DNA of 64,000 bases from a virus, in IMG/VR virus record IMGVR_UViG_3300049846_002551, positions 29,937-93,936 of that record; one strand, 5' to 3'. The position numbers and the translations under genes are program-made. The notes under the pieces are model-generated. The model was not told where the DNA came from, made no database searches, and worked only from the letters and a program-made list of their open reading frames with translations. Below are positions 25,036-62,785 of this stretch, piece by piece (position 1 is the first letter of the stretch; the number at the start of each line of letters is the position of its first letter).

Positions 25036-26425
25036 TTATAATCGGGGGGAAATTGTTGGTAATGTTCCAGCGAAGTTAGAGGCCCTACTCCAAAATGAAT
25101 TTGTTTGGTATGACATTAACGATTTAACCAATCCTGTTTATTTTTATTCCAATAAGGTGATGTACCTTGGGTTGATGTTTCAAGTCGCAGAATTCATAAC
25201 TGAATATGGTATCGAGTGCACAGTTAATCTCCCTAATTTGGACAAGCTTGATCGATATGATTGGAAGTTTATTGGCACTTATAGAGCTAAACAAAAAGAG
25301 GCTGTGAATGCGCTATACGCTTCACGTTATGGTGCATTAAAGGCTCCGCCTGGGTTTGGTAAAACTACAGTTGCATCGGCGTTAATTGCTAGAATTGGTT
25401 TGAAAACAGCGATTATTGTACAAGCGGGAGAACCGTTTGATCAGGCTTACAACACGATTCTTAAGATGACAAACATTAAGCATATAGGTCGAGTGTCTGG
25501 AGAATATAAGGATTTAGGAGATGTTACGGTCTACATGATTCAAACGTTGTCAAATGAGATTGCTGAGAATCCTAAAGGAGAAATTGCTACTGCTTTCGCG
25601 CAATCGCAAGTCGTGATTGTTGATGAACACCATCATTCAGCGGCGGATACTTATTTGCTAGCTTTAAATTTTGTAACTAATCCGCAATTTGTTTTTGGTT
25701 TTAGTGCAACCCCAGAAGATAGAGAGGACGGTTTGCAACCTTTTGTAAACGCTTATATAGGTCGTCCAGTATTTGAGGTTACATATGGTGAGCAGATTGC
25801 ACACGGGCATCTATGTCCTGTTACGGTTTATGTGATGCGAATGCCGGAAAGAGACTTCGGATACTCCAAAAATCGTAGTATTCCCGCGTTTCGGAAGAGG
25901 CAGTTATATCAAGAAGTTTATCAAGAGTATGTGGTTGAAAATCGAGAAAGGAATAACGAAGCGTTGTTTTTTACTCAAGATATGATTGATGAAGGACATT
26001 CGGTGGCAATTATTGTTTCGAGAATTCCACACGCTCACGAAATTCATAAGCTGTATCCGCAAGCTGTGGTTTTAACGAGCAGTACACCTAAAAGCGAAAG
26101 ACGGGATATTTTAGAAAAACTTCGTTCCAAAGAGATAATGTGCGTGGTAACCACTTTGTTTGATGAAGCAACCGATGTTCCTTCGTTGGGTGCTGTTTGC
26201 ATGCTTGCGGGTGGTAAAACGGAGATACGGTTGCGTCAGCGTATTCGTTCAACGCGAACATTTTCTGGACCGACAGCTAGAGGCCATTACAACAAAACTC
26301 GTGGATACGTATGGTATCCAATAGATCAAGCGGACTTTTTGCAGTCCCATTCTACGAAGTGCTTGAAAATTTTAAAGTCGATTGTACAGGAACATCCGGA
26401 GAACGAATTAGTATGGATACAATAG
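25019..26425 (+). CDS. SF2 DEAD/DEAH-like helicase (UvsW/Res-III-like)
   Basis: APPGFGKT Walker A, DEHHH, SATP; start likely GTG 25019 (ORF track 24917). Confidence 0.8.
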   Translation: MYIRPSYNRGEIVGNVPAKLEALLQNEFVWYDINDLTNPVYFYSNKVMYLGLMFQVAEFITEYGIECTVNLPNLDKLDRYDWKFIGTYRAKQKEAVNALYASRYGALKAPPGFGKTTVASALIARIGLKTAIIVQAGEPFDQAYNTILKMTNIKHIGRVSGEYKDLGDVTVYMIQTLSNEIAENPKGEIATAFAQSQVVIVDEHHHSAADTYLLALNFVTNPQFVFGFSATPEDREDGLQPFVNAYIGRPVFEVTYGEQIAHGHLCPVTVYVMRMPERDFGYSKNRSIPAFRKRQLYQEVYQEYVVENRERNNEALFFTQDMIDEGHSVAIIVSRIPHAHEIHKLYPQAVVLTSSTPKSERRDILEKLRSKEIMCVVTTLFDEATDVPSLGAVCMLAGGKTEIRLRQRIRSTRTFSGPTARGHYNKTRGYVWYPIDQADFLQSHSTKCLKILKSIVQEHPENELVWIQ

Positions 26426-26829
26426 GGTCACCTTTTTGGTTGTATATTCGTTTATTTGCGGATGCCATGAACATTGATTATTCGTTGTTTAAACGACGGT
26501 TCACGGATTTGCACATTAAGGAATTTAATGTTAGGATTAGTAACTGGAAAACCACTAATGGTTGGAGTAATAAAGAGGTATGTGGTTTAATATATTATTG
26601 CTATCTGCATAATCCTTTGGCTTCGGTGGATTTGAAATTGTATGGTCAGGCTGACAATATCGGTAAGTGTGTGAGTACCTATGCGAAATGGTTAAGAGCC
26701 AATCAAGAACGCATAGAAAAAGATGGGTTATTGAAAGCGATTTTTTCTACGAGTCCAAACACTACTTATTCTGAATTGAGTCGTGCCATGTCTTTGGATG
26801 AAGTGCACGAAATTTATGGCAAACATTGA
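26413..26829 (+). CDS. Hypothetical protein (possible replication initiator-associated)
   Basis: Coupled ORF between helicase and DnaC-like gene. Confidence 0.5.
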   Translation: MDTIGSPFWLYIRLFADAMNIDYSLFKRRFTDLHIKEFNVRISNWKTTNGWSNKEVCGLIYYCYLHNPLASVDLKLYGQADNIGKCVSTYAKWLRANQERIEKDGLLKAIFSTSPNTTYSELSRAMSLDEVHEIYGKH

Positions 26830-27610
26830 GCCGAATCAGTATATTCAATATGAGAAATGGTGCCGTAGCGATCATAAAAAATTAACGGCATTAGAGCAAG
26901 CGCGTGTTTTGCGTCTTAAAGAATTAGACGCGCTATGCAAAAAGTGTCGAATGTTTCCAGACGATCAAATGAAATGTGAGGGAACCAGGCAAGTGTTTCC
27001 AGTAAACGCGGAAAAAATTGACCCTAAGTTTTTTCGTTTAGAGATGCAATCTTGTCACAAGCTTGACGCTAAAGTTGATCATCAAATGTATTTGGAGCGT
27101 TTAAAGAGGGCTGGGATTTCAAAGAAGATGGCGACGGAATTACTACGCACTAATTCACCAAGATTGTCAACGGAAGTTACAAAGAAAGGTGGGCATCTGT
27201 ATTTTGATAAAAAGAAACTACATGATTTCACTTATGAAATACTATCGGACGGGTTAGACCTTAAGATTAAGGAATACATTATTGCTTTAGCGAACTGCGG
27301 GTTTCAAGGTGTGTACTTATTCACCGTCAATTTTTATCGTAGTTGGGTGCAAGGGTCTAGCCGGGTCGAGAACATTAAAACTATTCAAGGTCCTTTAATT
27401 GATTGTGATTGGTTAGTGGTTGAAGCCATTGACTATTCAACGGAAGCGACTTATTTCCGCGAAGCATTGTTTACGATTGTTAGGACGCGAGTCTCACAAT
27501 TGAAACCTACTACGATTATTCAGACGCGAAATACACCGCAGTTTCAAAGTGAGATGGAAAAGACGTTTTTTGCGGAGGTTATGAAGTGGCCCAAAATCAA
27601 TCTTACGTAA
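26816..27610 (+). CDS. Degenerate DnaC/IstB-like helicase loader
   Basis: Cys cluster at N-terminus; C-terminal DCDWLVVEAID...LFTIVRTRVSQLKPTTII; no intact Walker A. Confidence 0.55.
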   Translation: MANIEPNQYIQYEKWCRSDHKKLTALEQARVLRLKELDALCKKCRMFPDDQMKCEGTRQVFPVNAEKIDPKFFRLEMQSCHKLDAKVDHQMYLERLKRAGISKKMATELLRTNSPRLSTEVTKKGGHLYFDKKKLHDFTYEILSDGLDLKIKEYIIALANCGFQGVYLFTVNFYRSWVQGSSRVENIKTIQGPLIDCDWLVVEAIDYSTEATYFREALFTIVRTRVSQLKPTTIIQTRNTPQFQSEMEKTFFAEVMKWPKINLT

Positions 27611-27906
27611 TTACAATTGTGGGTTGTAGTCATTATTCTGAAGGCTGTTCCGCTATGTTAAACGATGATGACTGGATGGACGCGCTTACTTTCGAATGGG
27701 ATGTCCATAATGTACATGATGATACGGCTGTTATTGTAAAATATACAAAACACGTTATCGGTTTTGTTTCGAGAGCCACAAAAGATTTAGTTTGGAAAGC
27801 GGTGAAGGCAAAGCGCATGATTAATATTTTGGGTTTAGTGGAATGTGCTTTTGTGGATAAATCCCATACGCAACTTAAGTGGTTTTCGGTGGAGGTAAGT
27901 GAGTAG
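27586..27906 (+). CDS. HIRAN-domain protein
   Basis: IVGCSHY...NVHDDTAVIV...IGFVSR. Confidence 0.65.
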   Translation: MAQNQSYVITIVGCSHYSEGCSAMLNDDDWMDALTFEWDVHNVHDDTAVIVKYTKHVIGFVSRATKDLVWKAVKAKRMINILGLVECAFVDKSHTQLKWFSVEVSE

Positions 27907-29342
27907 TGGAGCCTATTTACGCTAAGTTTTTAAGCTACGTGATTGATATGAACGGTCAACTTGACCCTTTGTATGCACGAAAAATTTTCGCTAACACGGT
28001 TCTAACTTCGGAGTTCTTTTACGAGTATGACGCAAAAGCGAACACTTTTACTCCGACTGAAGCTTCGTTATTGTTTGATTTTTCAAAAGAACAATTTCAT
28101 CGGTATGATGCTCCTGCAACTGTTGATTCTATTGTTACGGAAGTGATGAAGCGTAGTGAGTTGTCTACGTTCGATAAAGAGCGAATCAACGAAGCTTTGA
28201 TTGTTATTTCTCAAGTGGGGGTAGTTCCTAATGATTTTGAATATAGTCTCGATTGCGTAATTGAAGCTTATACGGCTAATAAGACTATGCAAATTATGCA
28301 ACGTGGAACCGCGACTTTAAAAAATGATCCACGTGGTGGTGTTGAATATCTAGTTCAATCGTTAACACAGGTGCTTGCTTACCAGAGACTAGAGGAAACC
28401 GCGATTGAGCGCACGTTGACGCTGAGTACGTTTGCCGAATATCTGAAAGAGGAACTTCAAGAGAAAGGTTCGATCATGTCGGGTAGCGTGTCGTACCCTT
28501 ATTTAGATGCGAATAGGATTTTAGGTGGCATGGCTCCTGGAGAGTTAATCGTTATTGCAGGACCTTCAGGTTCTGGAAAAAGCTTTATAGGGCATGATAT
28601 TGCTTATTATGCGGCGTTGTCTTGCGGATTGAATACTGTTTGCGCTGATCGTGAAATGCTTCATCCTCAAAATGGTTTGAGGTTTTTATCTCGACAGACA
28701 CAAATACCTTCAAGAAAATTGCGTAATAAACGCAGTCGAACAGATGCGGAAAATCAGCTAATTGACGCCGCATTAGAAGAATATGTGAACATTATTTCCG
28801 AGCAAGACCCTCTTCTTTTTATTCCACCTAAACTTTGTGCTAACACATATATGATTCGTAGAGAGATTGATAAGCATTGGGGTACGCGAAAGCCAGATTT
28901 GATTATTGCAGATTATCTAACAGAGTTTGAGCCTACTATAAGACGAGAAGGGTGGGAAGAAGTTCGACAGGTGACGCATGATTTAAAACAACTCGGTTTA
29001 TATTATGCATGTCCTGTAGTAACGATGGCGCAGATTAATCAGCGGAAAGAAGTGCAGTATCGAACGATTAAACATATTTGCGATACATTGTTGATTATTG
29101 AAGAGGACGCTGATCAACCCTATGTTCCCCCTAAAGTGGATGAGTTTGTGGGTTCACCTGGTATTATCCATTGTACGGTTGATAAAGCGCGGAATGAAGC
29201 GCATAACGTCGGTTTCTCTTTGGAAATCGAGTTTGCGACGGCTTCTGTTCAAGCCGCTCCAGAGTATGGAAGAACTGCTATTGGCAGAGAATTGCAGAAA
29301 TCTCCATATGATCAGGATGAGGATGCAGACTTACAAGATTAA
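27906..29342 (+). CDS. dnaB: DnaB-like replicative helicase
   Basis: GELIVIAGPSGSGKS, IIADYL, MAQINQ, KARN. Confidence 0.9.
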   Translation: MEPIYAKFLSYVIDMNGQLDPLYARKIFANTVLTSEFFYEYDAKANTFTPTEASLLFDFSKEQFHRYDAPATVDSIVTEVMKRSELSTFDKERINEALIVISQVGVVPNDFEYSLDCVIEAYTANKTMQIMQRGTATLKNDPRGGVEYLVQSLTQVLAYQRLEETAIERTLTLSTFAEYLKEELQEKGSIMSGSVSYPYLDANRILGGMAPGELIVIAGPSGSGKSFIGHDIAYYAALSCGLNTVCADREMLHPQNGLRFLSRQTQIPSRKLRNKRSRTDAENQLIDAALEEYVNIISEQDPLLFIPPKLCANTYMIRREIDKHWGTRKPDLIIADYLTEFEPTIRREGWEEVRQVTHDLKQLGLYYACPVVTMAQINQRKEVQYRTIKHICDTLLIIEEDADQPYVPPKVDEFVGSPGIIHCTVDKARNEAHNVGFSLEIEFATASVQAAPEYGRTAIGRELQKSPYDQDEDADLQD

Positions 29343-29815
29343 TGTTTGATAAACGCGATATTGTAGAAGTGGCAGAGGAACTTGGAATCGAGTTGACTTA
29401 TCACGAACACACGGACAGACCTTACTATATGGGTTTCTGTCCGTTGCATGATAATGTTAAAACTCCTGCCTTTGTAATATTTCCACGCATACAACGTTTT
29501 TATTGCTACGGTTGTACACCTGAAGGTGGAGATGTTATAGATTTAATTCGAAAAAAAGAAGGGTTGAGTTTTAAACAAGCAGTACAACGAGTTACGATTG
29601 CACTTACAGCCGAAGATTCGTTTTTAAAGAGGTTGAAGCAGAACACTAATACTGTGGATTTAAACTATTTGCAGATTCGTGCTATGAAATTGAATGACGA
29701 GCCGCGCCGTTTAAACTTCAATACGGTTCAGCGTCTATATCAACAGTTTGATTTTTTAATCTCGGAAAACAGGTGGTTGGAAGCAGATCATCTTCTTAGG
29801 AAAGTTGGCGCATGA
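29342..29815 (+). CDS. Primase CHC2 zinc-binding domain (stand-alone)
   Basis: CPLHDNVKTPAF...FYCYGC...GDVIDL...GLSFKQAV. Confidence 0.85.
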   Translation: MFDKRDIVEVAEELGIELTYHEHTDRPYYMGFCPLHDNVKTPAFVIFPRIQRFYCYGCTPEGGDVIDLIRKKEGLSFKQAVQRVTIALTAEDSFLKRLKQNTNTVDLNYLQIRAMKLNDEPRRLNFNTVQRLYQQFDFLISENRWLEADHLLRKVGA

Positions 29816-31851
29816 TTCTAGAAAAAGAGTTAACAGGATTACCAGACGGGTGTCATTTAAACCCAATGCAGGAACTATTAGTTCCGCATATTAATGAGCA
29901 TTACAATATTGTTGTTGCGGCTCCTACTGCTTCGGGGAAAAGCCAAGCGATTACTATGTTTGGTTATAAGCACTTACGCAATAAGAAAAGGGTTTTGTAT
30001 ATTGGTATCATGAGAGCTTTAGCACAAGAGAAGTTTGACGATTGGCAATTACCAACTCACCCTTGGAGTAAGTATGCTAAGACTGTAATCAGCGGTGACT
30101 ACCGCATGGACACGGATAAACAAAAAGAAATTGATGCGGCTGAGATTATTTGTATTACCCCGGAATCTTTGGCGTCGCGTTTAAGGCATCCTCATTCACC
30201 ACGGAATCAATGGTTACATGAAGTCGGTATTTTGATTGTCGATGAATGCCATTTGCTTTCTGCGGATGATCGTGGAACCAACATGGAAGCCGCATTGATT
30301 GAGTTCACATATGAATTTCCGGACGTACAATTAATCGGGTTGTCTGCGACTCTTCCTAACGTTGATGAAATTGGTCACTGGTTTACAATTCTTAATAACA
30401 AGGAAACCTATGTTATTGAGAGCGAATATCGTCCTGTTGTTTTGGAGAAGCATTTTATGTCTTTCTCGAACACGGTTCGTGAAGCGATGGAAGAAGAGAA
30501 ATTAGCTATGATTGATCAGTTAGTTTGCGACGAGAAACCTGATCAGCAGTTTTTGATTTGTGTATGGCAGAAAACATGGGGAAAGAAGATTGAAGAGTAT
30601 CTTTCGAACAAAAAAGTGCCTGTAGCATTTCACAATGCGAATTACGATAAAGGTACGCGCAAAAACATTGAGCAATCTTTTAAAGACGGTAGAATTCGAG
30701 TACTGATTAGTACGTCTACTTTGTTTACAGGGGTTAATCTTCCTGCCAGGAACGTAATTATTACCGCAGTTGATATTGCACGAATGGATATTCCAGTTTA
30801 CGAGTTGCAACAGGCGATGGGAAGAGCAGGTCGCCCAAAATACGATACTGAAGGCGACGTTTACATTATGGTTCCTAGTCAACGCTTTAGCTATCATCAG
30901 CGGCGTATTTTGACAGGAGAACCTGTGCGTTCTGTATTGCACAAAGAAGAATGGTTGGCGATGCATTTTTTAGGTGCTCAATATCTTGGACGCATTGATA
31001 ATTTTGAAGGGTTTAATTTATGGTTTAACCGCACGTTAACACAATATCAAAACAATTTCCCGAAAGAAGTGAAAGAAAGCATGCTTTCCAATATTTTGGA
31101 TGATATGCGTATGCGTCGTATGATTATGTATGACGATTACACGAAGCATTTTCGTTTGGCACATAGAGGAAAAATTGCGGCGCAGATGTATATGGACCCC
31201 TATCACTTTAGTGATGCGCTGATCAATCTTTCGAAGTATTTTTCGCTTGTGAACCCGAACGATATGGATTTAGCTGTAGCGTTGGGTTCATGTCGAAAGT
31301 TTTCTGAGAACTCTATTTCGAATCGAGAAAAGTTGGCGATTCCAGATGAGGTTTTATTGCGGCAGGATGTTCTGAAAGCGTATATTAAGTCGATCAGCGT
31401 TATTTGGTATAGAATTAACGGAAAGCCTGTTCCGGAGCTTTTGTCAAATGTTAATTTTAAAATTTTTGATGATTTTCCGCGCTTGCATGCGGCAGTGGCA
31501 AGAGCAAATAACGAAGTTGAGCGTTGGAAGAGTATTACTCCGGAGAAACTTGATATTCTTTTTATGCGAGTTATTTTGAAATGTTCGGAAGAGCAAGCGG
31601 AGTTAGGGCTTAAAAAATTTACGAGCAACGAGCGCAAAAAGCTGTTAGCAGTTGGAATTTACTCGGTACGTGATGCAATGAATAATTTGGGTATGGTTCT
31701 AAAAGTTATTCCGCATATTCGATGTATAGAATTAGGGTTGATTAAAGCTGGAGCTAAACCGCCAACCGTGAATTCGGATGGTGTTGTAGAATACGCGGAA
31801 GTTTCCTCTAATCGTGGATTTGTTGGAAAGCGGGGTTTTGGAAAGCGATGA
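29812..31851 (+). CDS. Ski2/Hel308-like SF2 helicase
   Basis: APTASGKS, RALAQEK, TPE, DECH, LSATLPN, YRPVVL, FHNA, STSTL..GVNLPA, MGRAGRPKYD. Confidence 0.85.
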   Translation: MILEKELTGLPDGCHLNPMQELLVPHINEHYNIVVAAPTASGKSQAITMFGYKHLRNKKRVLYIGIMRALAQEKFDDWQLPTHPWSKYAKTVISGDYRMDTDKQKEIDAAEIICITPESLASRLRHPHSPRNQWLHEVGILIVDECHLLSADDRGTNMEAALIEFTYEFPDVQLIGLSATLPNVDEIGHWFTILNNKETYVIESEYRPVVLEKHFMSFSNTVREAMEEEKLAMIDQLVCDEKPDQQFLICVWQKTWGKKIEEYLSNKKVPVAFHNANYDKGTRKNIEQSFKDGRIRVLISTSTLFTGVNLPARNVIITAVDIARMDIPVYELQQAMGRAGRPKYDTEGDVYIMVPSQRFSYHQRRILTGEPVRSVLHKEEWLAMHFLGAQYLGRIDNFEGFNLWFNRTLTQYQNNFPKEVKESMLSNILDDMRMRRMIMYDDYTKHFRLAHRGKIAAQMYMDPYHFSDALINLSKYFSLVNPNDMDLAVALGSCRKFSENSISNREKLAIPDEVLLRQDVLKAYIKSISVIWYRINGKPVPELLSNVNFKIFDDFPRLHAAVARANNEVERWKSITPEKLDILFMRVILKCSEEQAELGLKKFTSNERKKLLAVGIYSVRDAMNNLGMVLKVIPHIRCIELGLIKAGAKPPTVNSDGVVEYAEVSSNRGFVGKRGFGKR

Positions 31852-44948: not shown

Positions 44949-45579
44949 AATCAGAGAATTGCGCGAGAAGTATGTGGCATCTTTAGACCAAGAAAACGCT
45001 CCGGCTATTGCTACATTCTGTCAAGATAACGGTTATACCGATGATGCGGATATCAAAAAAGTTTTGCGCTTGGCTAAAAAAGAAAATTGGGAAGCGCATC
45101 GAGTTAAACGTCGTGCTAAGTTGGCTCTTGCGCTGGAAAAACGCGAAGATAAGCTTATAGCCAAACTTGCTGATGATATGATGCAGGTTAGAGAAGGCTT
45201 TATCAAGGATCAAATCAATGAAGTCAATGATTTGCTTCCGAAAATGATTGAAGAGCTTAGAGCGAGAATGGAGACAGGGTTTTTTGACGATAAGGCTTTG
45301 ATACAAGGCATTAAATTGATGATGGAATCTCGAAGTTCCTTAATGGCTTTAATCGATAAACAATACGGTTCCGATGCTAACGCTAATGTGGCGCAACAGG
45401 GCAATCTGTTTGATTTTTTAAACCGATTGGCTTTTCTAAGTCGACTGGTTGAAGTGAATGACGGAAAAATTTCATCGGTTACATTGGACCCTTCAAACTA
45501 CAAACATTTGAGTGAGCAGGATGACAAAGAACGCACCGCTCTTACGGAATTAGATTCGGAGGTGCTCAATGAGAAATGA
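44932..45579 (+). CDS. Probable terminase small subunit
   Basis: N-terminal HTH-like segment with ENW..HR, helical; directly upstream of and overlapping large terminase. Confidence 0.55.
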   Translation: MLTASEIRELREKYVASLDQENAPAIATFCQDNGYTDDADIKKVLRLAKKENWEAHRVKRRAKLALALEKREDKLIAKLADDMMQVREGFIKDQINEVNDLLPKMIEELRARMETGFFDDKALIQGIKLMMESRSSLMALIDKQYGSDANANVAQQGNLFDFLNRLAFLSRLVEVNDGKISSVTLDPSNYKHLSEQDDKERTALTELDSEVLNEK

Positions 45580-48274
45580 GATTGATTCTCAAATTCACGA
45601 ACGACTTATACAAAATAAAAAGCGCGAAGCATGGGATGCAGATAGCAAAACTGTTATCGAGCATGCGCTTATGATGGGTCTTGAAGATCGAGAAGAGCTA
45701 GTTCGTAAAGCTAGAGATTTAGCTTGTACTCAAGCACCACGAACACCGACAGAGCTATGGCATGCGATACACCTTTTATTCGGGTACAAGGTTCCTTTGA
45801 CTTCTACACATCCCGATTTTAATGCACCATTTGAATGGTTTAGCAAAGCATATTTTAATGTTACAGATGACTCGGTTGCATTAGCAAGTCGTGGTTCTGG
45901 AAAAACATTGTTAGGTTCAATTCTTACAGCTATTAAATCTATTTGGAATCCTGGTTATGAGGCTGTGCATGCTGGTGGCACACAGGTGCAAGCGCACGTG
46001 GCGTCATCTTATTTGAATACGTTCTATACGTTTCCGCATTTCAAACCTTTGTTCGATGGCAAACCTGCAAAGTTTTCTGCAAGCTGGAAGAACAATTCTC
46101 AATTCAAGATCGTGACTGGAAGTATGAAAGGTGTGTCTGGTCAGCATCCTATTTTATTGACGCTCGATGAGATCGAGTTTTGGGAAATTGAAGCTTTAAC
46201 ACAGACTTTTGAAGTTCCTGTAAATAAGCAAAATTATCGGCGCGTGTGGACGGCATTCTCTACTAGACAACGATGCTTACCTGGTTATACACGAATTTTA
46301 ACCGAAGATGGGCCAATGAAAATTTCCAAGGTGGTTCGTACTCGCTATGCTGGAAAAGTTAAATCTTTTAATAGTGTAACTCAAGTATGGGAATGGAAAC
46401 AAGTTATTGATTGGTACCACAATGGTTCGAGTAGCGAATGGTTTAAAATTTATCTTGAATATACAGGATTAGGTCGGGGTTGTGAATTAATTGCAACAAA
46501 AGAACATTATGTTTACTATGCTCCAGGCAAGAAAAAACCTCTTGATCAGTTTGTAGAAGGAGATTGTTTATGTTTGCCATCTTGGTGTCCAAGCGGTGAT
46601 CAACGTCAATTATTATTAGGAACGCTGTTAGGGGATGCCTGTCTTAGTGGTGGTTCTTTACGCGTGGAGCATTCTAGCAAACAAGTTAATTATTTACGTT
46701 GGTTTGGTAGAGCTTTTAAAGAAGAAGCGTTGCCAGAAGATTATAATGAGAAGCGGGATCATTATCTACAGCGTTTAAAAGTTTCTCCATATTTACATAG
46801 ATTACAAAAAGAATGGTATCCCGATAAAGTTAAACGAATTCCAGATTATGTATGGGAAGAGCTTGACGAAAGAGGACTTGCAGTTTGGTTAATGGATGAT
46901 GGTTCATATCGTAAAGCGGGTACTAATAACGGTGGTGACACTTGGCATATTTATTGTAATCATTTTAATTCTCATGAACGCGAACAAATGCAGAAATGGT
47001 TTAAATGTCGTGGAGTTTATTTAACATGGATGGAGATGCGTCCTGGACAATTTTATGCATATATTGGTGGAGCCTACGCTCGTCTTGTTACAGAGATGGT
47101 AAAAGCGTATATTGATGTGTCTACACACCTCGGTGTGCGACAAGGATGGAAACGATGGGTTGCTTCTGATTATGTAGAAACAGGGCATGAAGGTATTGAA
47201 CAGGTGCCTATTCGTAAAATTGAAGTGCTACAAACAAATCCACAAGGATGTTATGACATTGCCGTAGAAGGAAATCATAATTACTGTAATGGTTCAAATA
47301 TATTAGTTAGCAATTCTTATGGATGTATGAACTGGTTAGTCGATGAGGCACCAAAAAGAGGTTTTTCGTTTTTTCAGTGGTCTGTGTTTGAAGTTATGCA
47401 ACCATGTATTACGTGTGAAGCTTTGGATAAAGAGCCTTATGGAGATGATGAAGCGCGTGAGTGCGTTTGTCCCCTATGGGAAGCTTGTAGAGGTGAACGC
47501 GCTAAAAAATCAAGTGGGTGGCTTCCACTAAAAGATGCACGTGATAAGTGTATTCGGTTAGGTGGACCACGTGGGAGAGAATGGCAAACACAGGGCTTGT
47601 GTAATCGCCCATCTAGTCATGGATTAGTTCTTCACAATTTTGAGCATACTTACAGACCGGATGGGAACTACACGAAGTGGGAGTACAATCCGGAATTACC
47701 GTGGTACGCAGTGCATGATCCTGCGGAGGGCAAAAAGTCTGTTATATATTTTTTGCAAATTTATGATGGTATGACATTTGTGTTTGATGAGTTAGTTGAT
47801 CCGTTATGCCCGGATGTTACCACTGCAAAACAAGCTTTCTATGAGCATTGTTTGCGAATGAAGTACCCCGATCCTGAAAAGATAGTTGTAGACCCGCATC
47901 GAACGGACGCAGTTGCTACATGGAAGTTTGGATCAAAATCTGGAGTCGGTATTTTACACTCGTATAGTGCAGATGTCCCTGATATTTCTGAGGTTTCTGG
48001 CGTTACTCAGTTCTTAACTAAAACGATTGAATTGTTGCGTCAATCAATTTGTGATGGTCGTAATCATCGTAAGCTTTTTATCAATCCAGAATATTGTCCG
48101 CATGCGGTTCGCGGAATAAAAGAGTACCACTATCCAACTGATAAGGTTACTAATGACGTAAATTCAGATATACCACAAAAAGATTATTCGGATGAAGTTG
48201 ATCCCTTACGATATTGGGAGATGTATCGTGTTACGAAATTAAATCAAGGTGGTGGAAGAATTCTTGTTTTGTAG
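45569..48274 (+). CDS. terL: Terminase large subunit with intein
   Basis: ASRGSGKT, LTLDEIE, C-terminal RNaseH-like nuclease (VHDP...VFDE...DEVDPLRY). Confidence 0.85.
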   Translation: MRNEIDSQIHERLIQNKKREAWDADSKTVIEHALMMGLEDREELVRKARDLACTQAPRTPTELWHAIHLLFGYKVPLTSTHPDFNAPFEWFSKAYFNVTDDSVALASRGSGKTLLGSILTAIKSIWNPGYEAVHAGGTQVQAHVASSYLNTFYTFPHFKPLFDGKPAKFSASWKNNSQFKIVTGSMKGVSGQHPILLTLDEIEFWEIEALTQTFEVPVNKQNYRRVWTAFSTRQRCLPGYTRILTEDGPMKISKVVRTRYAGKVKSFNSVTQVWEWKQVIDWYHNGSSSEWFKIYLEYTGLGRGCELIATKEHYVYYAPGKKKPLDQFVEGDCLCLPSWCPSGDQRQLLLGTLLGDACLSGGSLRVEHSSKQVNYLRWFGRAFKEEALPEDYNEKRDHYLQRLKVSPYLHRLQKEWYPDKVKRIPDYVWEELDERGLAVWLMDDGSYRKAGTNNGGDTWHIYCNHFNSHEREQMQKWFKCRGVYLTWMEMRPGQFYAYIGGAYARLVTEMVKAYIDVSTHLGVRQGWKRWVASDYVETGHEGIEQVPIRKIEVLQTNPQGCYDIAVEGNHNYCNGSNILVSNSYGCMNWLVDEAPKRGFSFFQWSVFEVMQPCITCEALDKEPYGDDEARECVCPLWEACRGERAKKSSGWLPLKDARDKCIRLGGPRGREWQTQGLCNRPSSHGLVLHNFEHTYRPDGNYTKWEYNPELPWYAVHDPAEGKKSVIYFLQIYDGMTFVFDELVDPLCPDVTTAKQAFYEHCLRMKYPDPEKIVVDPHRTDAVATWKFGSKSGVGILHSYSADVPDISEVSGVTQFLTKTIELLRQSICDGRNHRKLFINPEYCPHAVRGIKEYHYPTDKVTNDVNSDIPQKDYSDEVDPLRYWEMYRVTKLNQGGGRILVL
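46274..47314 (+). mobile_element. Intein with LAGLIDADG homing endonuclease in terminase
   Basis: CLPGYTRILTEDG...TKEH...LLGTLLGDA...LAVWLMDDGS...YDIAVEGNHNY...VSN/S. Confidence 0.88.
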
Positions 48275-48384
48275 CACCTAAATATACTGGGAAATCTCCA
48301 GAAATTTTTCTAGTCCAATTTCCATGTGTAGACTGTCTATTACCTTTTAGACAGGGTATTTTTGAAGGAGTTCATTTCTACATC

Positions 48385-50271
48385 ATGGACATTGGTTCTC
48401 GTATTTTGTCGGACATGGTTCACTATGGTAAGTATGCCAAATACATTTACAATTTGCATCGACGCGAGTCTTATCTGGAAACACTTGAGCGGAACAAAGG
48501 GATGCATATTAGTCGATTTCCGCAACAGAAAGCACTAATTGAAGATGCGTATTCTTTAGTTGCCGAAAAGAAGATTTTACCTTCGATGCGTTCCATGCAA
48601 TTTGGTGGAAGTGCGATGTTTAAAAACCATGCACGTGGTTATAATTGTTGCTACTTACCGATTGAACATCACACCTCTTTTGCTGAAGCGATGTTTCTGT
48701 TATTGTGTGGAACTGGAGTAGGTTATTCGGTTCAACGCCATAACATAATGAACATTCCTCCGATCATGTCTCCCGGTCCATCACAACGTTATCTAATTGG
48801 AGATTCTATTGAAGGATGGGCGGATGCGGTGCGTCATTTAATGAAAGCATACTTACAAGGCGCACCACTCCCAAAGTTTGCTTATGACGACATTCGTCCA
48901 GCGGGTTCTGAGCTATCTTCTGGAGGTAAGGCTCCGGGTCCGGAGCCGCTTCGTAGAGTATTAGACCTGACGCGGGACTTGTTGGAATCTAAGCCTATTG
49001 GAAGTCGACTTACTTCATTAGATTGTCACGACATTTTGTGCTTATTATCAGAAGCAGTTTTAAGTGGTGGGATTAGGCGTTCGGCAATGATTGCGCTTTT
49101 TGATTACGATGATGCGCTTATGTTGAATTGCAAGAATCCAGAAAACTTTGAGTATCCAAGGGCCGATGGTTCTGGTGGAAAAAATGTTCAAAGAATGAGA
49201 GCTAACAATTCGGCAGTATTATTACGTTCTTTGCATAAGGAATACTTTGATAACATTTGGAAAACTGTGAGTGAGGCAGGATCAGGAGAGCCTGGAATTT
49301 TTTGGACTAACGATTTAGATTACGGAACAAATCCCTGTTGTGAGATTGCGCTTAGACCGTACTCTTTTTGTAACTTAACAGAAATTAACACTTCTAATTT
49401 GGAGGACCAGTCGGACTACGATCAACGGGCTTGGGCCGCATCGATTATTGGAACGTTGCAAGCGAGTTACACCGATTTTCATTACCTTCGACCAATTTGG
49501 CGACAAACAAGTGAAGAAGATGCGCTTTTAGGAATTGGCATGACTGGGATTGCAAGTGGCTGTGTTTTAGATTTAGACATGACGCAAGCGGCACGAGTTG
49601 CATGTGAAACTAACGAGTGGTTTTCAAAATCTATCGGTATCAATCAAGCAAAGCGTGTTACATGCGTTAAACCTTCTGGAACTACTTCACTAGTGTTGGG
49701 TTGTTCATCTGGAGTGCATGCTTGGCATGATTATTATTACATTCGAAGAGTTCGATTAGGAACTGATGAGCCGTTAGCACAATATCTCATGGTGCATCAT
49801 CCGGAAATTTTGGAGAATTCAATAGAGAAGCCTGAACGTGAAGTAATTGTTTCAGTTCCTGTTGAGGCTCCTGCCAAAGCAATTACTCGGCATCATGAGT
49901 CTCCGAACACTATTCTAGAACGAGTTAAAAAGATACACAAAGAGTGGATTACTCCGGGTCATCGAGAAGGTGCGAATCAACATAACGTTTCATGCACCGT
50001 TAGTATCAAATCTGGTGAATGGCGTGAGGTTGGGGATTGGATGTGGGAGAATAGAGCGCACTACACGGGTTTGTCGTGCTTTCCATTTTGGGGTTCAGAT
50101 AGTCTGCATGTTCAGGCCCCTTTTGAAACTATTACTGTTGACGATTACCGACAACGAGTTGCGGTTCTTAAAGATATTGATTTAACGAGTATCGTTGAAT
50201 CGACTAATGCGATTGAACATGAAGCGGAAAGTGCTTGTGCTGGTGGCGCATGTATGGTTACACGAATGTGA
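48385..50271 (+). CDS. nrdJ: Class II (B12-dependent) ribonucleotide reductase
   Basis: YNCC, GTGVGYSV, GGIRRSA, NPCCEI, CNLTEI, KPSGTTS, C-terminal CAGGAC; AAGGAG upstream of ATG 48385; no nrdB nearby. Confidence 0.9.
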   Translation: MDIGSRILSDMVHYGKYAKYIYNLHRRESYLETLERNKGMHISRFPQQKALIEDAYSLVAEKKILPSMRSMQFGGSAMFKNHARGYNCCYLPIEHHTSFAEAMFLLLCGTGVGYSVQRHNIMNIPPIMSPGPSQRYLIGDSIEGWADAVRHLMKAYLQGAPLPKFAYDDIRPAGSELSSGGKAPGPEPLRRVLDLTRDLLESKPIGSRLTSLDCHDILCLLSEAVLSGGIRRSAMIALFDYDDALMLNCKNPENFEYPRADGSGGKNVQRMRANNSAVLLRSLHKEYFDNIWKTVSEAGSGEPGIFWTNDLDYGTNPCCEIALRPYSFCNLTEINTSNLEDQSDYDQRAWAASIIGTLQASYTDFHYLRPIWRQTSEEDALLGIGMTGIASGCVLDLDMTQAARVACETNEWFSKSIGINQAKRVTCVKPSGTTSLVLGCSSGVHAWHDYYYIRRVRLGTDEPLAQYLMVHHPEILENSIEKPEREVIVSVPVEAPAKAITRHHESPNTILERVKKIHKEWITPGHREGANQHNVSCTVSIKSGEWREVGDWMWENRAHYTGLSCFPFWGSDSLHVQAPFETITVDDYRQRVAVLKDIDLTSIVESTNAIEHEAESACAGGACMVTRM

Positions 50272-50309
50272 AAATTACCTATCAGTAAATATTATGGGAT
50301 AATAGAAAC

Positions 50310-50534
50310 ATGAGCAAGGAATACCCAAACGCTTCGATTCCAAAATTAACTAAAACTGAAATGCGGGTAATGGAAAATATTGCTAAAGGTCTAACTTCTC
50401 AGCAAGTGGCAGATGCATTAGCTTTGAGTAAACGAACTGTGGATTTTCATTTGGGAAATATCTATAGTAAGTTCGACGTTTCGAATCGAGTGCAAGCGAC
50501 CAACAAAGCAAGAGCATTAGGGTTAATTGAGTAA
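50310..50534 (+). CDS. Stand-alone LuxR/GerE-type HTH regulator
   Basis: LTKTE...IAKGLTSQQVADAL.LSKRTVDFHLGNIYSKF.V.NRVQA. Confidence 0.9.
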   Translation: MSKEYPNASIPKLTKTEMRVMENIAKGLTSQQVADALALSKRTVDFHLGNIYSKFDVSNRVQATNKARALGLIE

Positions 50535-50779
50535 TGCAAGAAGTGATTGAAGCGTTGCGTAAGGATGAGCATGTTGTGCAAATCAACAATACGCCATATG
50601 ATGTTTTTATACATAGAGAGGATTGCTCGTCTGATGAAGAGAACAACGCACGGTTTACTGCCAAGCATGTGTATCAATTAGTCCTGAAACCTGTTGTAGG
50701 TGGTCAATCGTTTTCGTTTTATGGAGATACGAAAGAAGTTTGTTACGATCACCTCTTAGCATTTTTTACGGAGGTGTAA
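50534..50779 (+). CDS. Hypothetical protein
   Basis: TAATG-coupled ORF. Confidence 0.55.
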   Translation: MQEVIEALRKDEHVVQINNTPYDVFIHREDCSSDEENNARFTAKHVYQLVLKPVVGGQSFSFYGDTKEVCYDHLLAFFTEV

Positions 50780-50780
50780 T

Positions 50781-51056
50781 GTGCGAACTGCCCATCAACC
50801 TGATGAAAGTCAGCCCCTTAACCTCAGTTCGGATGCGCTTCAATACTTGGGTGCGTTAAAAGAGTGCCATGAAGCCTTGATTGAAACGCTAGATGTCACA
50901 GATGAGATAATCAAGTTGGTAAAAGACTTTTTGGAGGGAGATGCTATAGATTCTCAGGACGTGTTGTTGTTATGCGAACGTTATGAGGTCATGTCGGCTT
51001 CCACAAGACAAAATTTTGAAATTTCAAAGTCCCCCCTTGACAAAACTACCCTTTAG
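50781..51056 (+). CDS. Hypothetical protein
   Basis: GGAGG RBS, acidic helical ORF. Confidence 0.55.
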   Translation: MRTAHQPDESQPLNLSSDALQYLGALKECHEALIETLDVTDEIIKLVKDFLEGDAIDSQDVLLLCERYEVMSASTRQNFEISKSPLDKTTL

Positions 51057-51067
51057 GGTGGTACAAT
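51037..51067 (+). promoter_or_regulatory. TTGACA-AAACTAC promoter copy 1
   Basis: TTGACA-19 nt-TACAAT with extended TG. Confidence 0.75.
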
Positions 51068-51093
51068 GATTTTGTTATCGAGTGGAAACCAAT

Positions 51094-51192
51094 AAGAGAG
51101 GCGGCGCACAGCGATAACGCTAGATTCAATGTCTGGTGGGTTTTGAGTGCTTTTCAAGTGGGATGAATAGGCTGTGCGTTGACTCTCTTTTT
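51094..51192 (+). ncRNA. Candidate small RNA (long closing stem, U-tail)
   Basis: AAGAGAG-G-CGGCGCACAGC ... GCTGTGCGTTG-A-CTCTCTT-TTT just downstream of promoter; no ORF. Confidence 0.5.
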
Positions 51193-51248
51193 GTATGGTT
51201 TGCAAAAACATGGTAAAACTGTAGGGACGTTCGAAGTAGGAGAGAATA

Positions 51249-51440
51249 ATGCAATTTTATGATGTTCGCACTCGACAACATGTTGATATTCCCGACGAAA
51301 ACTGCGAAAAGGTAGTTTTTGCTAAAGGAACCAGTAAAGAACGATATGCCTTTAAAGGGGTAACTCCGGCAGGTAACAAGGTGATGAAGTTTTGCTCGAA
51401 AACGGATTACGACGCTTCGACTTTGAAAGAAGGCGCGTAA
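51249..51440 (+). CDS. Small basic beta-sheet protein resembling CC1-type chromatin proteins
   Basis: MQFYDVRTRQHV...RYAFKG.TP.G.KV.KF pattern; AGGAG RBS. Confidence 0.55.
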   Translation: MQFYDVRTRQHVDIPDENCEKVVFAKGTSKERYAFKGVTPAGNKVMKFCSKTDYDASTLKEGA

Positions 51441-51445
51441 GTAGG

Positions 51446-51467
51446 TTTGTACATTGACAATTGAATA
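51446..51467 (+). promoter_or_regulatory. rrn boxA-like antitermination/leader motif
   Basis: TTTGTACATTGACAATTGAATA resembles boxA-containing rRNA spacer sequences; directly precedes giant ncRNA. Confidence 0.4.
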
Positions 51468-51480
51468 ACAAGTTTACGAT

Positions 51481-52398
51481 TTGGTCAGAACTAAACGCTA
51501 GTCGTTTGTAGTACGACCAAAAACACGGTGGTATAGCATCGTTAGATAGGGCATCGAGAGATGTGGAAAGGGATCAGGTTCTTCATACCCCCCGCTACTC
51601 CTTAAAAAGAGTAGTCATCTATGCAAGCTCAGTTGCTGTAAGCTTCAGGACCGAAAGGTATTGGAACTATACTGGTAATTGTGAAATCGAAACGTTTTAA
51701 GAAGCACGGGGGTGACACTATCGACTTCTTGGAGCCATCGGAGTAGCGTCTGATAAAGGTTTCATGCAAAGCAATGACAGTTAAGCGACGAAGAGTAGTG
51801 TTAGTGCTTGAGTTCAGTCGTGAATAAAAGCGTTAATGCAGGTGAGCGTGGAGAGCTACGCAGAAAGCGTAGCTGGAAACGTTAAATCAGACGAGTAACG
51901 TATAACGACCGTGAAAGTTAATAAGCGGTGTGTCGTATTTCTATCTTCAAAAGAGACTGAAGCGGCGGCGCACACACATCGTTATGAAGTTGCATATAGC
52001 TCAATGGTAGAGCAACGCCATGCTAGGGCGTAGGTTGCTGGTTCAAGTCCAGTTAAGCTACAAAAAAACGCACAAGTTGTGCGCCACATGATGACGACAA
52101 TTGGCCTCTGTCCTTAATCTTAGAGATGTAAGGAGCAGGAAGTCTCGCAAGGATAACCTGTAGTGTGACGAGGAACGACATAAACTCTTAGCGGGGTTGA
52201 ATTGCTGATAATAAGGCAAGTGGCAAGTACAGATTGCACAGTAGTCTCATGGTGACTGGGAAAGCATGTCCAGTATAAAAAATGCGGTCAGGCAGTCGGA
52301 CCATTCGCAAGGATGGTGGATAAGTTGGCAACAAGTATTGCAAATACTTGGTACTCCAATATAAAGCGACTGAGTATCAGGAGTAGTCTCGTCCTGTG
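51481..52398 (+). ncRNA. GOLLD-like giant non-coding RNA
   Basis: No credible ORF, dense hairpins; contains motifs I recall from GOLLD 3' domains (CGTATT...TCAAAAG...GAAGCG; AGTCTCGCAAGGATAA; TTAGCGGGGTT); embedded tRNA-like domain; ends approximate. Confidence 0.75.
51990..52061 (+). tRNA. Pseudo-tRNA (anticodon GCT) embedded in GOLLD-like RNA
   Basis: D arm GCTC-AATGGTA-GAGC, AC arm ACGCC-ATGCTAG-GGCGT, T arm GCTGG-TTCAAGT-CCAGT; two acceptor mismatches, no CCA, short variable loop. Confidence 0.7.
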
Positions 52399-52404
52399 AG
52401 TAAT

Positions 52405-52517
52405 ATGTATTGATGGTTAACACCGTAGCTGAAAGGTAGCGGGAATGGTGTGCGGACCTACGGAGCAATCTAGGGTTCGCATTCCTCCAGGGTGTGAATC
52501 CCAAACCATCAGTACAT
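52405..52517 (+). ncRNA. Unnamed structured RNA A
   Basis: 14-bp closing stem ATGTATTGATGGTT/AACCATCAGTACAT; internal stems; GGAAT/ATTCC possible pseudoknot; T-loop-like GGG-TGTGAAT-CCC. Confidence 0.65.
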
Positions 52518-52587
52518 TTTCAAATTTTGAATTTTCAAAGCTAATTTCTAAAAACTCGAATATGAAAATGATCGAAAATTTTTTAAG

Positions 52588-52796
52588 GTCGTGCGCGTAT
52601 ATGGGTTTTTTGGCTGAAAACGAGTTAGTCTCTGGGGTCATTTTAAGGAGTCCATAGCACCTTACTTTGGGAGATGGTGACGCGATACCCATGTAACGTC
52701 ATCTGAGGAAACCAGCCTGAATAACCAAGCTAATGAACACGAGTCCCTAGCAACGCTGGTGAAAGAGAAAACGTGTGACACTCCGGAGAGACGGAG
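52588..52796 (+). ncRNA. Unnamed structured RNA B ending in GTGACA-stem-GAGAGA module
   Basis: TATATGGGT/ACCCATGTA and other stems; CTCCG-GAGAGA-CGGAG followed by ATTTT. Confidence 0.5.
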
Positions 52797-52800
52797 ATTT

Positions 52801-52959
52801 TGTTACTCCATATGTGAATTACCATTTGGTTACTCGAAAGGGTAAGTGTGGTTCCAGTACAACAGACCAAGAAGATGCTGGCGGAAGCGACGATTATGTA
52901 ATTGCGGTGACCCGAACCAAAAGCGTCGTGAACAGGTGACATCCCCGGAAAGACGGGGG
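52801..52959 (+). ncRNA. Unnamed structured RNA C ending in GTGACA-stem-GAAAGA module
   Basis: TGTTACT/GGTGACA closing stem; TTACTC-GAAA-GGGTAA hairpin; TCCCCG-GAAAGA-CGGGGG. Confidence 0.5.
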
Positions 52960-52963
52960 CCGA

Positions 52964-53178
52964 TTTAGTTATAGGGTCGTAATCCGACATTGCTGTTGCT
53001 CGGCGGCAAAATCATGAGCGAACTAAAGAAATGGTGAAACACGCAGTAGGTAGTCGCTACTGATATGATGTTAGCAATAACATTGAAAATCCCCCAGCCG
53101 GAGGGGTCAGACTTAAAAAGGAATAGCGCAATTCTTCCCTAACCCGGACTCTAACCTGAGATGACTGGCAAAGTGCCA
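52964..53178 (+). ncRNA. Unnamed structured RNA D
   Basis: TTTAGTT/AACTAAA, GTCG/CGAC, TTGCTGT/GCGGCAA, CAGTAG/CTACTG, TGTTA-GCAA-TAACA stems; no credible ORF. Confidence 0.45.
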
Positions 53179-53250
53179 ATCCCCGGAACAAGCGGTGCAA
53201 CGAAGAGATAGCTACTCGGATACGTCGAAAGTTCGTACTTGCCGGGGATT
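53178..53250 (+). ncRNA. Unnamed 73-nt structured RNA E abutting tRNA-Glu
   Basis: AATCCCCGG/CCGGGGATT 9-bp closing stem plus CAAG/CTTG. Confidence 0.5.
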
Positions 53251-53253
53251 TTT

Positions 53254-53328
53254 GGCCTCTTGGTCTATCGGTTATGATCTCCGGCTTTCTACCGGAAGAG
53301 ACGGGTTCGACTCCCGTAGAGGCTACCA
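53254..53328 (+). tRNA. tRNA-Glu(TTC)
   Basis: GGCCTCT/AGAGGCT acceptor, TCCGG-CTTTCTA-CCGGA anticodon arm, GGTTCGACTCC T arm, encoded CCA. Confidence 0.93.
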
Positions 53329-53355: not shown

Positions 53356-53916
53356 ATGGCTAATGATCAAAAACCGTGGCGTAACAAGATTCCCATTCCT
53401 TACAAAGGCATTAACACTAGATATTCCCCTGCCCGTGTTAGTACAATGAAAGCCGTATTCGGAAGTCCAGTTGGTAAATTGACCAATGACTGTAACGAAG
53501 ATGCTATATCTCCAAAGATTGCGAAACGGATTAAGACCAGAAAAATCGGCAAGTGGAAGTTTCGAGGTCTTGATCTGTTTCTTGATGTAATTGAACAAGT
53601 TTTTGCCGAGTATGCGGTGAAATATCCGGATGCCTACAACGATCTTCATCAAGAAGGCATGCTTTGTGTTCGTTTAGTTCGCGGCAGTAAGTCGCAACCA
53701 AGCAATCATTCTTGGGGTACGGCAGTTGACTTAGGGTTTGGAGATGCCGTTGACAGTCGAGGCGATGGCTTTTGTTTTAAAGGGATGCTCGACCTGTATG
53801 CTATCGCTAAAAAATATAAGCTTTTTTGGGGTGCATCCTTTAGCACCGAAGATGCAATGCATTTTGAGGCTTCAGAGCAGTTGGTTCGGGAGTGGTCGGA
53901 AACAGGCTTAATTTAA
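53356..53916 (+). CDS. M15-family peptidoglycan peptidase (endolysin)
   Basis: R...SNHSWGTAVD...WG..F...DAMHFE. Confidence 0.85.
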   Translation: MANDQKPWRNKIPIPYKGINTRYSPARVSTMKAVFGSPVGKLTNDCNEDAISPKIAKRIKTRKIGKWKFRGLDLFLDVIEQVFAEYAVKYPDAYNDLHQEGMLCVRLVRGSKSQPSNHSWGTAVDLGFGDAVDSRGDGFCFKGMLDLYAIAKKYKLFWGASFSTEDAMHFEASEQLVREWSETGLI

Positions 53917-62676: not shown

Positions 62677-62752
62677 CTCCACATACAGCGGTATCGAACG
62701 AACAGTCCCTGAAACCTGTTCGTGCTATGGGAGACTGTTAGGAGAGACTAAC
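62677..62752 (+). ncRNA. Structured element ending in GAGACT-stem-GAGAGA module
   Basis: CTCC-CATA/TATGGGAG and CGAACAG/CTGTTCG stems; GTTAG-GAGAGA-CTAAC. Confidence 0.45.
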
Positions 62753-62754
62753 AC

Positions 62755-62785
62755 TTGACAAAACTACTCCTGATTGTGGTATTAT
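62755..62785 (+). promoter_or_regulatory. TTGACA-AAACTAC promoter copy 8
   Basis: TTGACA-19 nt-TATTAT; ATG 6 nt later. Confidence 0.8.

Follow-up and report, generated by a model that had tools for sequence, protein, structure and literature searches.

Here we report a non-coding RNA island in an uncultured freshwater phage, together with a two-hairpin RNA motif that it shares with phages from many host phyla. The island lies within a 64,000-nucleotide (nt) stretch of DNA, hereafter the window, which comprises bases 29937-93936 of the 93,936-base IMG/VR virus record IMGVR_UViG_3300049846_002551 (CheckV completeness 81%); positions below are those of the window unless another record is named. 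What appears to be a divergent GOLLD-type RNA, with a tRNA-like element in its linker, is followed there by a folded element (A), a tract of unique sequence (B, C, D and E) and a tRNA-Glu, and the motif forms the 3' modules of B and C. Found with fully covarying stems at more than 170 IMG/VR loci, a figure that is itself a minimum, the motif is conserved, forms hairpins on the sense strand, and lies in non-coding regions and in the leaders of tRNAs.

The motif unit consists of a first helix (P1), the sequence GAC-A, a second helix (P2) of five base pairs (bp) with a GARAGA loop, and a following A. The canonical copy 1 (52737..52797, plus strand) scores 41.4 bits (E 7.5e-6) with R2, a covariance model built from 119 instances in other phages only. 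Its P1 is formed by 52737-41 and 52772-76, GAC-A occupies 52777-80, P2 joins 52781-85 to 52792-96 around the loop GAGAGA, the final A is at 52797, and both hairpins are present in the minimum free energy fold. Copy 2 (52928..52962, plus strand; R2 19.2 bits, E 0.067) is spaced 161 nt from copy 1 and is a variant in which GUGAC-A (52936-41) leads into a 6-bp P2 (52942-47 / 52954-59) with the loop GAAAGA; no local P1 was found at this copy, where there is a long-range candidate only. Copy 3 (62677..62753, plus strand; R2 24.0 bits, E 0.0095), a GAGAC variant with its hairpin at 62736-53, fills the gap from a stop codon at 62676 to a promoter at 62755; its fold has a z-score of -2.17 and its closing helix ends one base later than the register of copy 1. 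These three copies are exactly what R2 finds in the window at E <0.1. Across 2 Mb of unrelated phage loci a single such hairpin with a GWGAC flank was found, 7 nt before a tRNA in the GOLLD/tRNA island of the record IMGVR_UViG_3300027741_000376 (L211). Positions 2100-3000 of L211 hold a tRNA cluster interleaved with small self-closing elements and with a 120-nt tRNA that has an insert, and at 8626-10376 a 308-bit GOLLD stands beside a phage-encoded transfer-messenger RNA on the opposite strand.

Two patterns were used to scan IMG/VR. The first, GTGAC-N6-GARAGA-N5-ATTTT, was found in at least 117 stretches, and all five stem positions were complementary in 83 of the 116 matches listed, against about 0.7% by chance. 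The second, GGTGAC-N5-GGAGAGAC, leaves the tail unconstrained, and 96 of the 119 matches listed were fully paired (chance ~2%). In prokaryote assemblies (596 Gb) the motif is rare, with 27 matches; the 18 that are fully paired come from Cyanobacteria, Proteobacteria, Bacteroidota, Planctomycetota, Gemmatimonadota, a Mycobacterium metagenome-assembled genome, Spirochaetota and Dependentiae. Stem pairing of 100% in the filtered alignment is there by construction, and it is the unfiltered fractions given above that constitute the evidence. Within that alignment double changes are numerous at each stem pair, and G-U pairs take up 40 of the 605 stem cells. Among columns not forced by the patterns, the base next to GUGAC is A in 74-77% of instances, P2 is closed by G-C in 94-96%, and an A comes after P2 in 67%, the base after P2 being A in 61 of 89 unique instances from the second scan and in 67% of 66 non-redundant ones. 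A 5-bp Watson-Crick P1 ending on the GU of GUGAC, with its partner strand within 40 nt, is present in 45 of 120 non-redundant instances where 5.5 would be expected (z 17.7), and neighbouring registers show nothing comparable; because this enrichment falls at the exact GU register, P1 is included in the motif unit. The motif is oriented sense to local coding in 48 cases and antisense in 8, a bias which, together with the G-U pairs, argues that it acts as RNA.

The nearest open reading frames (ORFs) of at least 100 amino acids (aa) lie a median of 309 nt upstream and 202 nt downstream of the motif. A tRNA is found within 300 nt of 30 of the 120 copies (6.6 expected), and each of the 39 tRNAs concerned runs in the same direction as the motif. 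In seven cases the motif stops 4-6 nt short of the tRNA 5' end and in another two 10-13 nt short of it, and six of the nine tRNAs that directly follow are tRNA-Met. Several phages carry two or three copies in tandem, 70-570 nt apart, and the sequence upstream of the motif is enriched in CGAAAG hairpins of the GNRA type and in T-arm words.

Cultured carriers include phages of Ralstonia, Cronobacter, Klebsiella, Stenotrophomonas, Pseudomonas, Rhodobacter, Bacteroides, Planktothrix, Microcystis and Synechococcus, as well as the E. coli phage mEp390; among them are the Ralstonia phages GP4 and Eline, Cronobacter phage CS01 and Planktothrix phage Pag-Yong1. The motif is unannotated in these phages, as it almost always is in its carriers. 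In mEp390 (NC_019721) two copies (R2 E ~8e-4 each) stand ~190 and ~400 nt downstream of a TTGACA...TACATT site, a sigma-70-type promoter-like site that we read as pL and that is unannotated in the record. Both copies lie in a gene-poor leader of ~700 nt after the repressor gene, and part of this leader is conserved in ~100 enterobacterial temperate-phage records, nearly all of which leave it unannotated. Within positions 1560-2300 of the mEp390 record, the first copy falls within gp36, annotated as a 'hypothetical protein' and perhaps a spurious ORF. In phage HK022 (NC_002166), R2 found no copy between positions 24000 and 31000, where its best score was 12.1 bits with the hairpin missing; this interval presumably holds the immunity region with pL/putL and pR/putR, none of which is annotated there. 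At 3909-3931 on the minus strand of HK022, near an IS903 insertion, the ACGGUGUGACACC flank of an mEp390 copy is kept with the hairpin missing, and this site may be a remnant of the motif.

Several familiar assignments of the motif were tried and rejected. It does not behave as an intrinsic terminator, a T-rich tail being found in 10 of the 89 tail-unconstrained instances; copy 1 is followed by AUUUUG, and copies 2 and 3 are without a U tract. Pairing of GUGAC with an upstream GUCAC is not borne out by the frequency of that word, which occurs in 12.5% of upstream regions and ranks 49th against 60 permutations. Nor is the motif the cis-regulator of one gene family, as its neighbour genes are heterogeneous and there is no sharp spacing to start codons. 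At E <=0.1 the only Rfam matches in 18 motif loci were of tRNA type, and a literature word search for the motif returned nothing relevant.

The GOLLD-type RNA is recognised by its match to RF02032, which lies at 51923-52395 (plus strand), takes in the last 5' hairpin, the linker and the conserved 3' domain, runs over model positions 1-416 of 416 and scores 120.6 bits (E 2.3e-32 in the 4.5 kb searched, 1.1e-34 over the contig). The cmscan alignment keeps the 10-bp pseudoknot and almost every helix paired, with few non-canonical positions flagged. Since the score falls under the gathering cut-off of the family, we class this RNA as divergent and GOLLD-type and not as a curated RF02032 member. 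The segment ahead of the match (51481..51922, plus strand) is presumed from its position to be the variable 5' domain, which would bring the total length to ~915 nt; its fold (51475-51925) has a z-score of -3.54, and no sequence homolog was found in the fetched phage loci. The first-pass annotation, made from the sequence alone, had proposed a giant GOLLD-like RNA in this place. Such an RNA is indeed present, but the Rfam match is confined to its 3' part and a second tRNA-type element lies inside it. This element (51989..52062, plus strand, 74 nt, anticodon GCU) scores 51.7 bits with RF00005 and is called 'Ser(gct)' by ARAGORN; with two acceptor-stem mismatches and without the long variable arm of Ser tRNAs, it is best called tRNA-like.

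Cryo-electron microscopy of env-38 has been reported to show GOLLD assembled into a 14-mer cage, with the linker, in which phage tRNAs 'sometimes' occur, facing the cage interior (Kretsch et al. 2025, PMC12286853). In the island ~334 nt separate the 3' end of the tRNA-like element from that of GOLLD. A pattern for the GOLLD 3' domain brought in 72 other IMG/VR loci, and in 12 of them a same-strand tRNA ends at a similar distance, 325-344 nt ahead of the GOLLD 3' terminus; GOLLD with a linker tRNA is thus a recurrent subtype. A stricter 3'-end pattern, taken from a second GOLLD of the source sample, gave no matches. The most similar island found is on the minus strand of IMGVR_UViG_3300025608_000097 (L181) at ~5590-6370, where a GOLLD with a GCU insert is followed by a self-closing element with a canonical T arm, a second long hairpin, tRNA-Asp and tRNA-Glu. 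The L181 insert is of the same GCU type as ours, with a near-identical D arm and anticodon loop and with compensatory changes in the anticodon and T stems.

The contig DNA is present in a freshwater-sediment run, which probably is its source, and a second freshwater study has fragments of identical sequence; these are DNA contigs, with no sequence variation between the two data sets, and among the runs listed as carrying this DNA none was of RNA. Short contigs from the source sample carry another GOLLD (63 nt with 11 differences to window 52305-52367) and a relative of the B 3' module (37 nt with 4 differences to window 52758-52794), from which we conclude that related elements co-occur in the source sediment. 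No close relative of this phage was found in the collections searched, and top protein identities near the island are 50-69%. Synteny searches through the M15 peptidase, the 63-aa ORF and the ribonucleotide reductase (RNR)-like protein described below led only to distant phages, all without the island. Blastn gave no matches, GOLLD is missing from the five nearest records, and against 50,697 GenBank phages the island matches in its tRNA parts only.

The tract that holds the island is the longest in the contig without an ORF of at least 100 aa on either strand (50272-53322, 3051 nt; the runner-up is 530 nt), which bears out the initial observation that a gene-dense genome sets aside ~1.9 kb without a credible ORF. 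Almost all ORFs of the contig are on the plus strand, and small ORFs within 50272-53322 have no PHROG matches. At gathering thresholds Rfam recognises only two tRNAs in the island. At E <=10, Rfam 15 gives GOLLD, the two tRNAs and one chance Hairpin-meta2 row (12.5 bits against a cut-off of 210), and no family beyond GOLLD and the tRNAs accounts for the remaining segments, as the first reading had anticipated. The tRNA that it placed at the end of the tract is a normal tRNA-Glu (UUC) with an encoded CCA (53254..53328, plus strand; RF00005 51.2 bits, cut-off 29; ARAGORN Glu(ttc)), with a cloverleaf above the gathering score and a standard anticodon loop.

Element A (52405..52517, plus strand) is the only one of the five proposed companion RNAs of GOLLD with a clear folding signal. 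This 113-nt four-way junction folds at -48.5 kcal/mol compared with -30.1 for shuffled sequences (z -5.35 on the plus strand, -1.07 on the minus strand). It is cloverleaf-shaped: a 14-bp stem closes it, two of its arms end in GNRA caps, and a further arm, of 3 bp, carries a 7-nt T-loop-like loop and adjoins the 3' strand. A single-sequence covariance model (R1) found no relatives of A in 72 GOLLD loci and 15 RNR loci (88 sources), nor did blastn across the 4.2 Mb of phage loci that were fetched. In L181 the same place after GOLLD is taken by a self-closing element of different sequence with a canonical T arm; we treat the resemblance as an analogy only.

The remaining companions fare differently. 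The bodies of B (52588..52736) and C (52801..52927) and the segments D and E (52964..53250), all read on the plus strand, had been described as self-closing domains, yet their folds are no better than chance, with z-scores against shuffles of +0.40, -0.93, -0.90 and -1.36 for the whole of B and for C, D and E, and of +0.13 when B-E are folded as a single piece. Of the five companion RNAs proposed, the part that stands is A, which folds and belongs to no Rfam family, while B-E are without fold signal. Collecting homologs for these segments, as had been advised, yielded none for A-E in ~4.2 Mb of fetched phage loci except for the short 3' module of B and C, which is the widespread portable motif rather than part of a discrete structured family; D and E also have no Rfam match. 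B and C are not paralogs beyond that module (local alignment z 0.9). The region contributes about 660 nt of unique untranslated sequence, at 48% G+C compared with 42% genome-wide. E is closed by a 9-bp GC-rich stem, and its U run ends 3 nt before the tRNA. The start of E (53170-53200) has a 10-nt word, ATCCCCGGAA, in common with P2 of copy 2 and resembles a degenerate fourth copy, a resemblance that is statistically non-significant.

The layout of promoters is consistent with a single transcription unit, as first proposed. The unit promoter (51037..51067, plus strand), with a -35 TTGACA followed by AAACTAC, a 19-nt spacer and a -10 TACAAT, belongs to a phage-specific family. TTGMCAAAACTAC occurs 8 times in the window (0.29 expected) and 10 times in the contig, every copy being followed by a GGTAyAaT-type -10, and the family box TTGACAAAACTAC with such a -10 likewise has 10 contig copies. 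Members lie at window positions 51037, 53921, 54375, 56484, 56840, 57747, 61753 and 62755, with two more upstream in the contig; their consensus joins TTGACA directly to AAACTAC, which is invariant, and continues with a spacer of 18-19 nt and a -10 of the GGTAyAaT type. Conservation of the spacer heptamer suggests that it is read by a phage or host factor, and a GerE/LuxR-type helix-turn-helix protein of 74 aa encoded just upstream of the island (50310-50534, E 3e-19) is a candidate regulator of the promoter family. There is no family member between 51037 and 53921, the latter lying directly after the M15 peptidase gene, and a generic sigma-70 scan found no good site within the tract. From 51037 the order is a leader hairpin with a U run, the 63-aa ORF (ORF63), GOLLD with its tRNA-like insert, A, an AT-rich linker, B with copy 1, C with copy 2, D, E, tRNA-Glu and the M15 peptidase gene.

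The leader hairpin (51090..51198, plus strand) is an inverted repeat with 23-nt arms (51090-51112 / 51171-51193, 83% complementary) followed by UUUUU. It folds at -39.9 kcal/mol (z -4.28; the opposite strand also reaches z -4.17) and is like a terminator or attenuator, or a short leader RNA; a small RNA element had been suspected at 51094-51200, and the long hairpin (z -4.3) with its U run agrees with this. The linker after A (52518..52587, 80% A+T) holds the second copy of a 19-nt direct repeat, AAATTTTGAAWTTTCAAAG, whose copies at 51011-51029 and 52522-52540 are identical at 18 of 19 positions and are the only two in the contig. The first copy abuts the promoter, the repeat core is palindromic, and the pair flanks the promoter, ORF63, GOLLD and A. 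Downstream of the second copy lies a degenerate TTGACAAAACTAC promoter box, and with the repeat pair it suggests that a GOLLD cassette may have been inserted or duplicated at a promoter. The pair may be the scar of that event, or may be a pair of operator sites.

In the explanation that we prefer, the whole unit would be one transcript from the promoter at 51037, from which GOLLD and the tRNA would be cut out, and B-E would be variable filler carrying a portable motif, not four new RNA families. The motif would act in cis on the nascent transcript, so that RNA polymerase would go on elongating across an untranslated, Rho-prone stretch of more than 2 kb, in a manner that resembles nut or put sites in logic and not in sequence; alternatively, it might mark the transcript for processing beside tRNAs. 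What prompts the guess at elongation is the place of the motif in the mEp390 leader, its association with extended ORF-free stretches, its resemblance in shape to boxB, and hosts so diverse that its partner would have to be universal. The anatomy of the island is probably as we describe it. An antitermination-type mechanism is put forward tentatively, and for the explanation as a whole, anatomy and mechanism taken together, our confidence is a compromise, evenly divided between acceptance and doubt. The stronger proposal, that the motif is an undescribed portable phage RNA signal which works across host phyla by acting directly on a universal host machine, for example in put-like fashion on elongating RNA polymerase, strikes us as doubtful.

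A number of observations weigh against this explanation. Co-transcription and processing are predicted from the promoter layout. Both island copies of the motif lie downstream of GOLLD and not at the head of the untranslated tract, and copy 3 lies at a gene end, 2 nt before a promoter, a position more in keeping with a role at 3' ends or in processing than with a nut-like site. The GUGAC and GARAGA columns were fixed by the search patterns, and their invariance is no sign of conservation. The GOLLD score of 120.6 bits is below the Rfam gathering cut-off of 150 bits, compared with 308 bits for the GOLLD of L211. Finally, B, D and E show neither fold signal nor conservation, and part of the tract may be functionless.

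Some of the same evidence can be read in another way, with the island as a processed operon of discrete stable small RNAs and the motif as their 3'-terminal stability or processing module, RNase P at adjacent tRNAs or nucleases at A/U linkers freeing trans-acting RNAs made of a body and a motif. The close and co-oriented placement of motifs before tRNAs, with its excess of tRNA-Met, would suit such a module, as would the tandem units found elsewhere at spacings that include the 161 nt seen here, the CGAAAG hairpins and T-arm words upstream of the motif, and the position of copy 3 at the 3' end of a transcription unit. Set against this, the bodies show no conservation between phages, those of B and C fold no better than shuffles, and 90 of the 120 motif copies are away from tRNAs. 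We regard a processed operon as possible, if on balance rather doubtful.

Phage lambda N binds boxB, and coat or operator proteins bind their hairpins, and P2 could similarly be the binding hairpin of a small, fast-evolving phage protein, with the loop and the GAC-A flank as its read-out and not as a self-acting RNA. A boxB-like shape with a 5-bp GC-rich stem and a purine-rich GNRA-like loop, one to three copies per genome, and a leader position in mEp390 after a promoter-like site are all in keeping with such a site, as is the way in which the loop, the G-C closing pair (94-96% where the patterns leave it free) and the 5' flank stay fixed while the stem varies freely. The genes that flank the motif, however, have no common protein family, and the carriers infect hosts of many phyla, where so common a phage protein family should have been noticed; there is also no boxA-like sequence, and the loop has six bases, not five. 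A protein-binding site is in our view unlikely. It is more improbable still that the B and C bodies, D and E are functionless spacer decaying from a larger tRNA/non-coding RNA cluster or left by insertion of a GOLLD cassette: the z-score of +0.13 for B-E and their want of a homolog anywhere searched speak for this, and the 19-nt repeat around the promoter, ORF63, GOLLD and A with its degenerate TTGACAAAACTAC box is what insertion or duplication of a cassette would leave, but phage genomes are compact, this is by far the largest non-coding tract of the contig, its G+C is raised above that of the genome, and the identical fragments from the second study are uninformative on constraint either way.

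The orphan 63-aa ORF (51249..51440, plus strand; ribosome site AGGAGA) has no Pfam or PHROG match and, among 5.8 billion proteins, no relative but itself. It had been thought to resemble a nucleic-acid-binding protein; neither this nor a 'CC1-like' binder is upheld by its AlphaFold2 model, which has five short strands, a predicted local distance difference test score of 60 and no fold match at E 0.001. Downstream of the tRNA, the gene for an M15-family, endolysin-type peptidase (53356..53916, plus strand; PF13539, E 9.5e-10; homologs at 56-69% identity in Logan and JGI data) is the last before the next promoter. Upstream, a 901-aa ORF (45569-48274) with a LAGLIDADG endonuclease and a weak intein-splicing signal is overlapped at its end by a 685-aa ORF (48214-50271) with a ribonucleotide-reductase barrel domain, and the two look like an intein-bearing or split RNR.

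GOLLD islands are already known, and to these the present island adds a divergent member with a tRNA-like insert in its linker. The more useful result is the motif of 25-60 nt, whose loop and flank are fixed and whose stems covary freely, found in hundreds of phage contigs. As it is carried by tractable cultured phages, including the lambdoid coliphage mEp390, its function can be tested. A general antitermination or processing signal, if that is what the motif is, would also account for phage expression of untranslated RNA over kilobases, as with GOLLD and ROOL. With GOLLD (RF02032) the island RNA shares alignment over the full length of the model, the helices and pseudoknot of the 3' domain, a total of ~900 nt, a structured variable 5' domain, a phage context beside a tRNA and a linker tRNA. 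It differs in scoring under the gathering cut-off, in a 5' domain without detectable sequence relatives, and in a linker tRNA whose acceptor stem is degenerate and whose Ser-type anticodon is combined with a body that lacks the long arm.

Phage tRNA islands, such as ROOL and GOLLD neighbourhoods and the T4 tRNA region, combine tRNA genes with co-transcribed stable RNAs. As in these, tRNA genes and structured non-coding RNAs are here interleaved in one orientation, with the tRNAs likely serving as processing punctuation; unlike them, our island has one true tRNA and mostly unique sequence, and its recurrent unit is the short motif instead of tRNA-sized genes. In the lambda nut site, boxB, which works in N/Nus antitermination, has the pentaloop GAARA, and boxA lies 8 nt upstream. 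The motif is like boxB in its 5-bp GC-rich stem, its purine-rich GNRA-like loop, its combination of variable stem and fixed loop, and its leader position after a site read as an early promoter in mEp390. It differs in having the hexaloop GARAGA, a conserved GUGAC-A flank directly adjacent and an abutting P1 hairpin, and no N-like protein was identified for it.

The putL and putR sites of HK022 are protein-independent processive antiterminators of ~70 nt with two long stems and a triplex, and it has been suggested that some of the RNA polymerase-sigma70 contacts which put makes in its sigma-bound complex may be particular to gamma-proteobacteria (PMC9378689). The motif is not put, as the search of HK022 24000-31000 gave no convincing copy (pL, pR and put being unannotated there), and it differs from put also in occurring in phages of many host phyla. 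What it shares with put is a two-hairpin RNA placed in early leaders downstream of phage promoters, in one to three copies per genome, and a predicted function that would likewise explain how polymerase crosses long untranslated or terminator-rich DNA. If the motif is put-like, phages from cyanophages to coliphages would use it to drive transcription through GOLLD/tRNA islands and early leaders.

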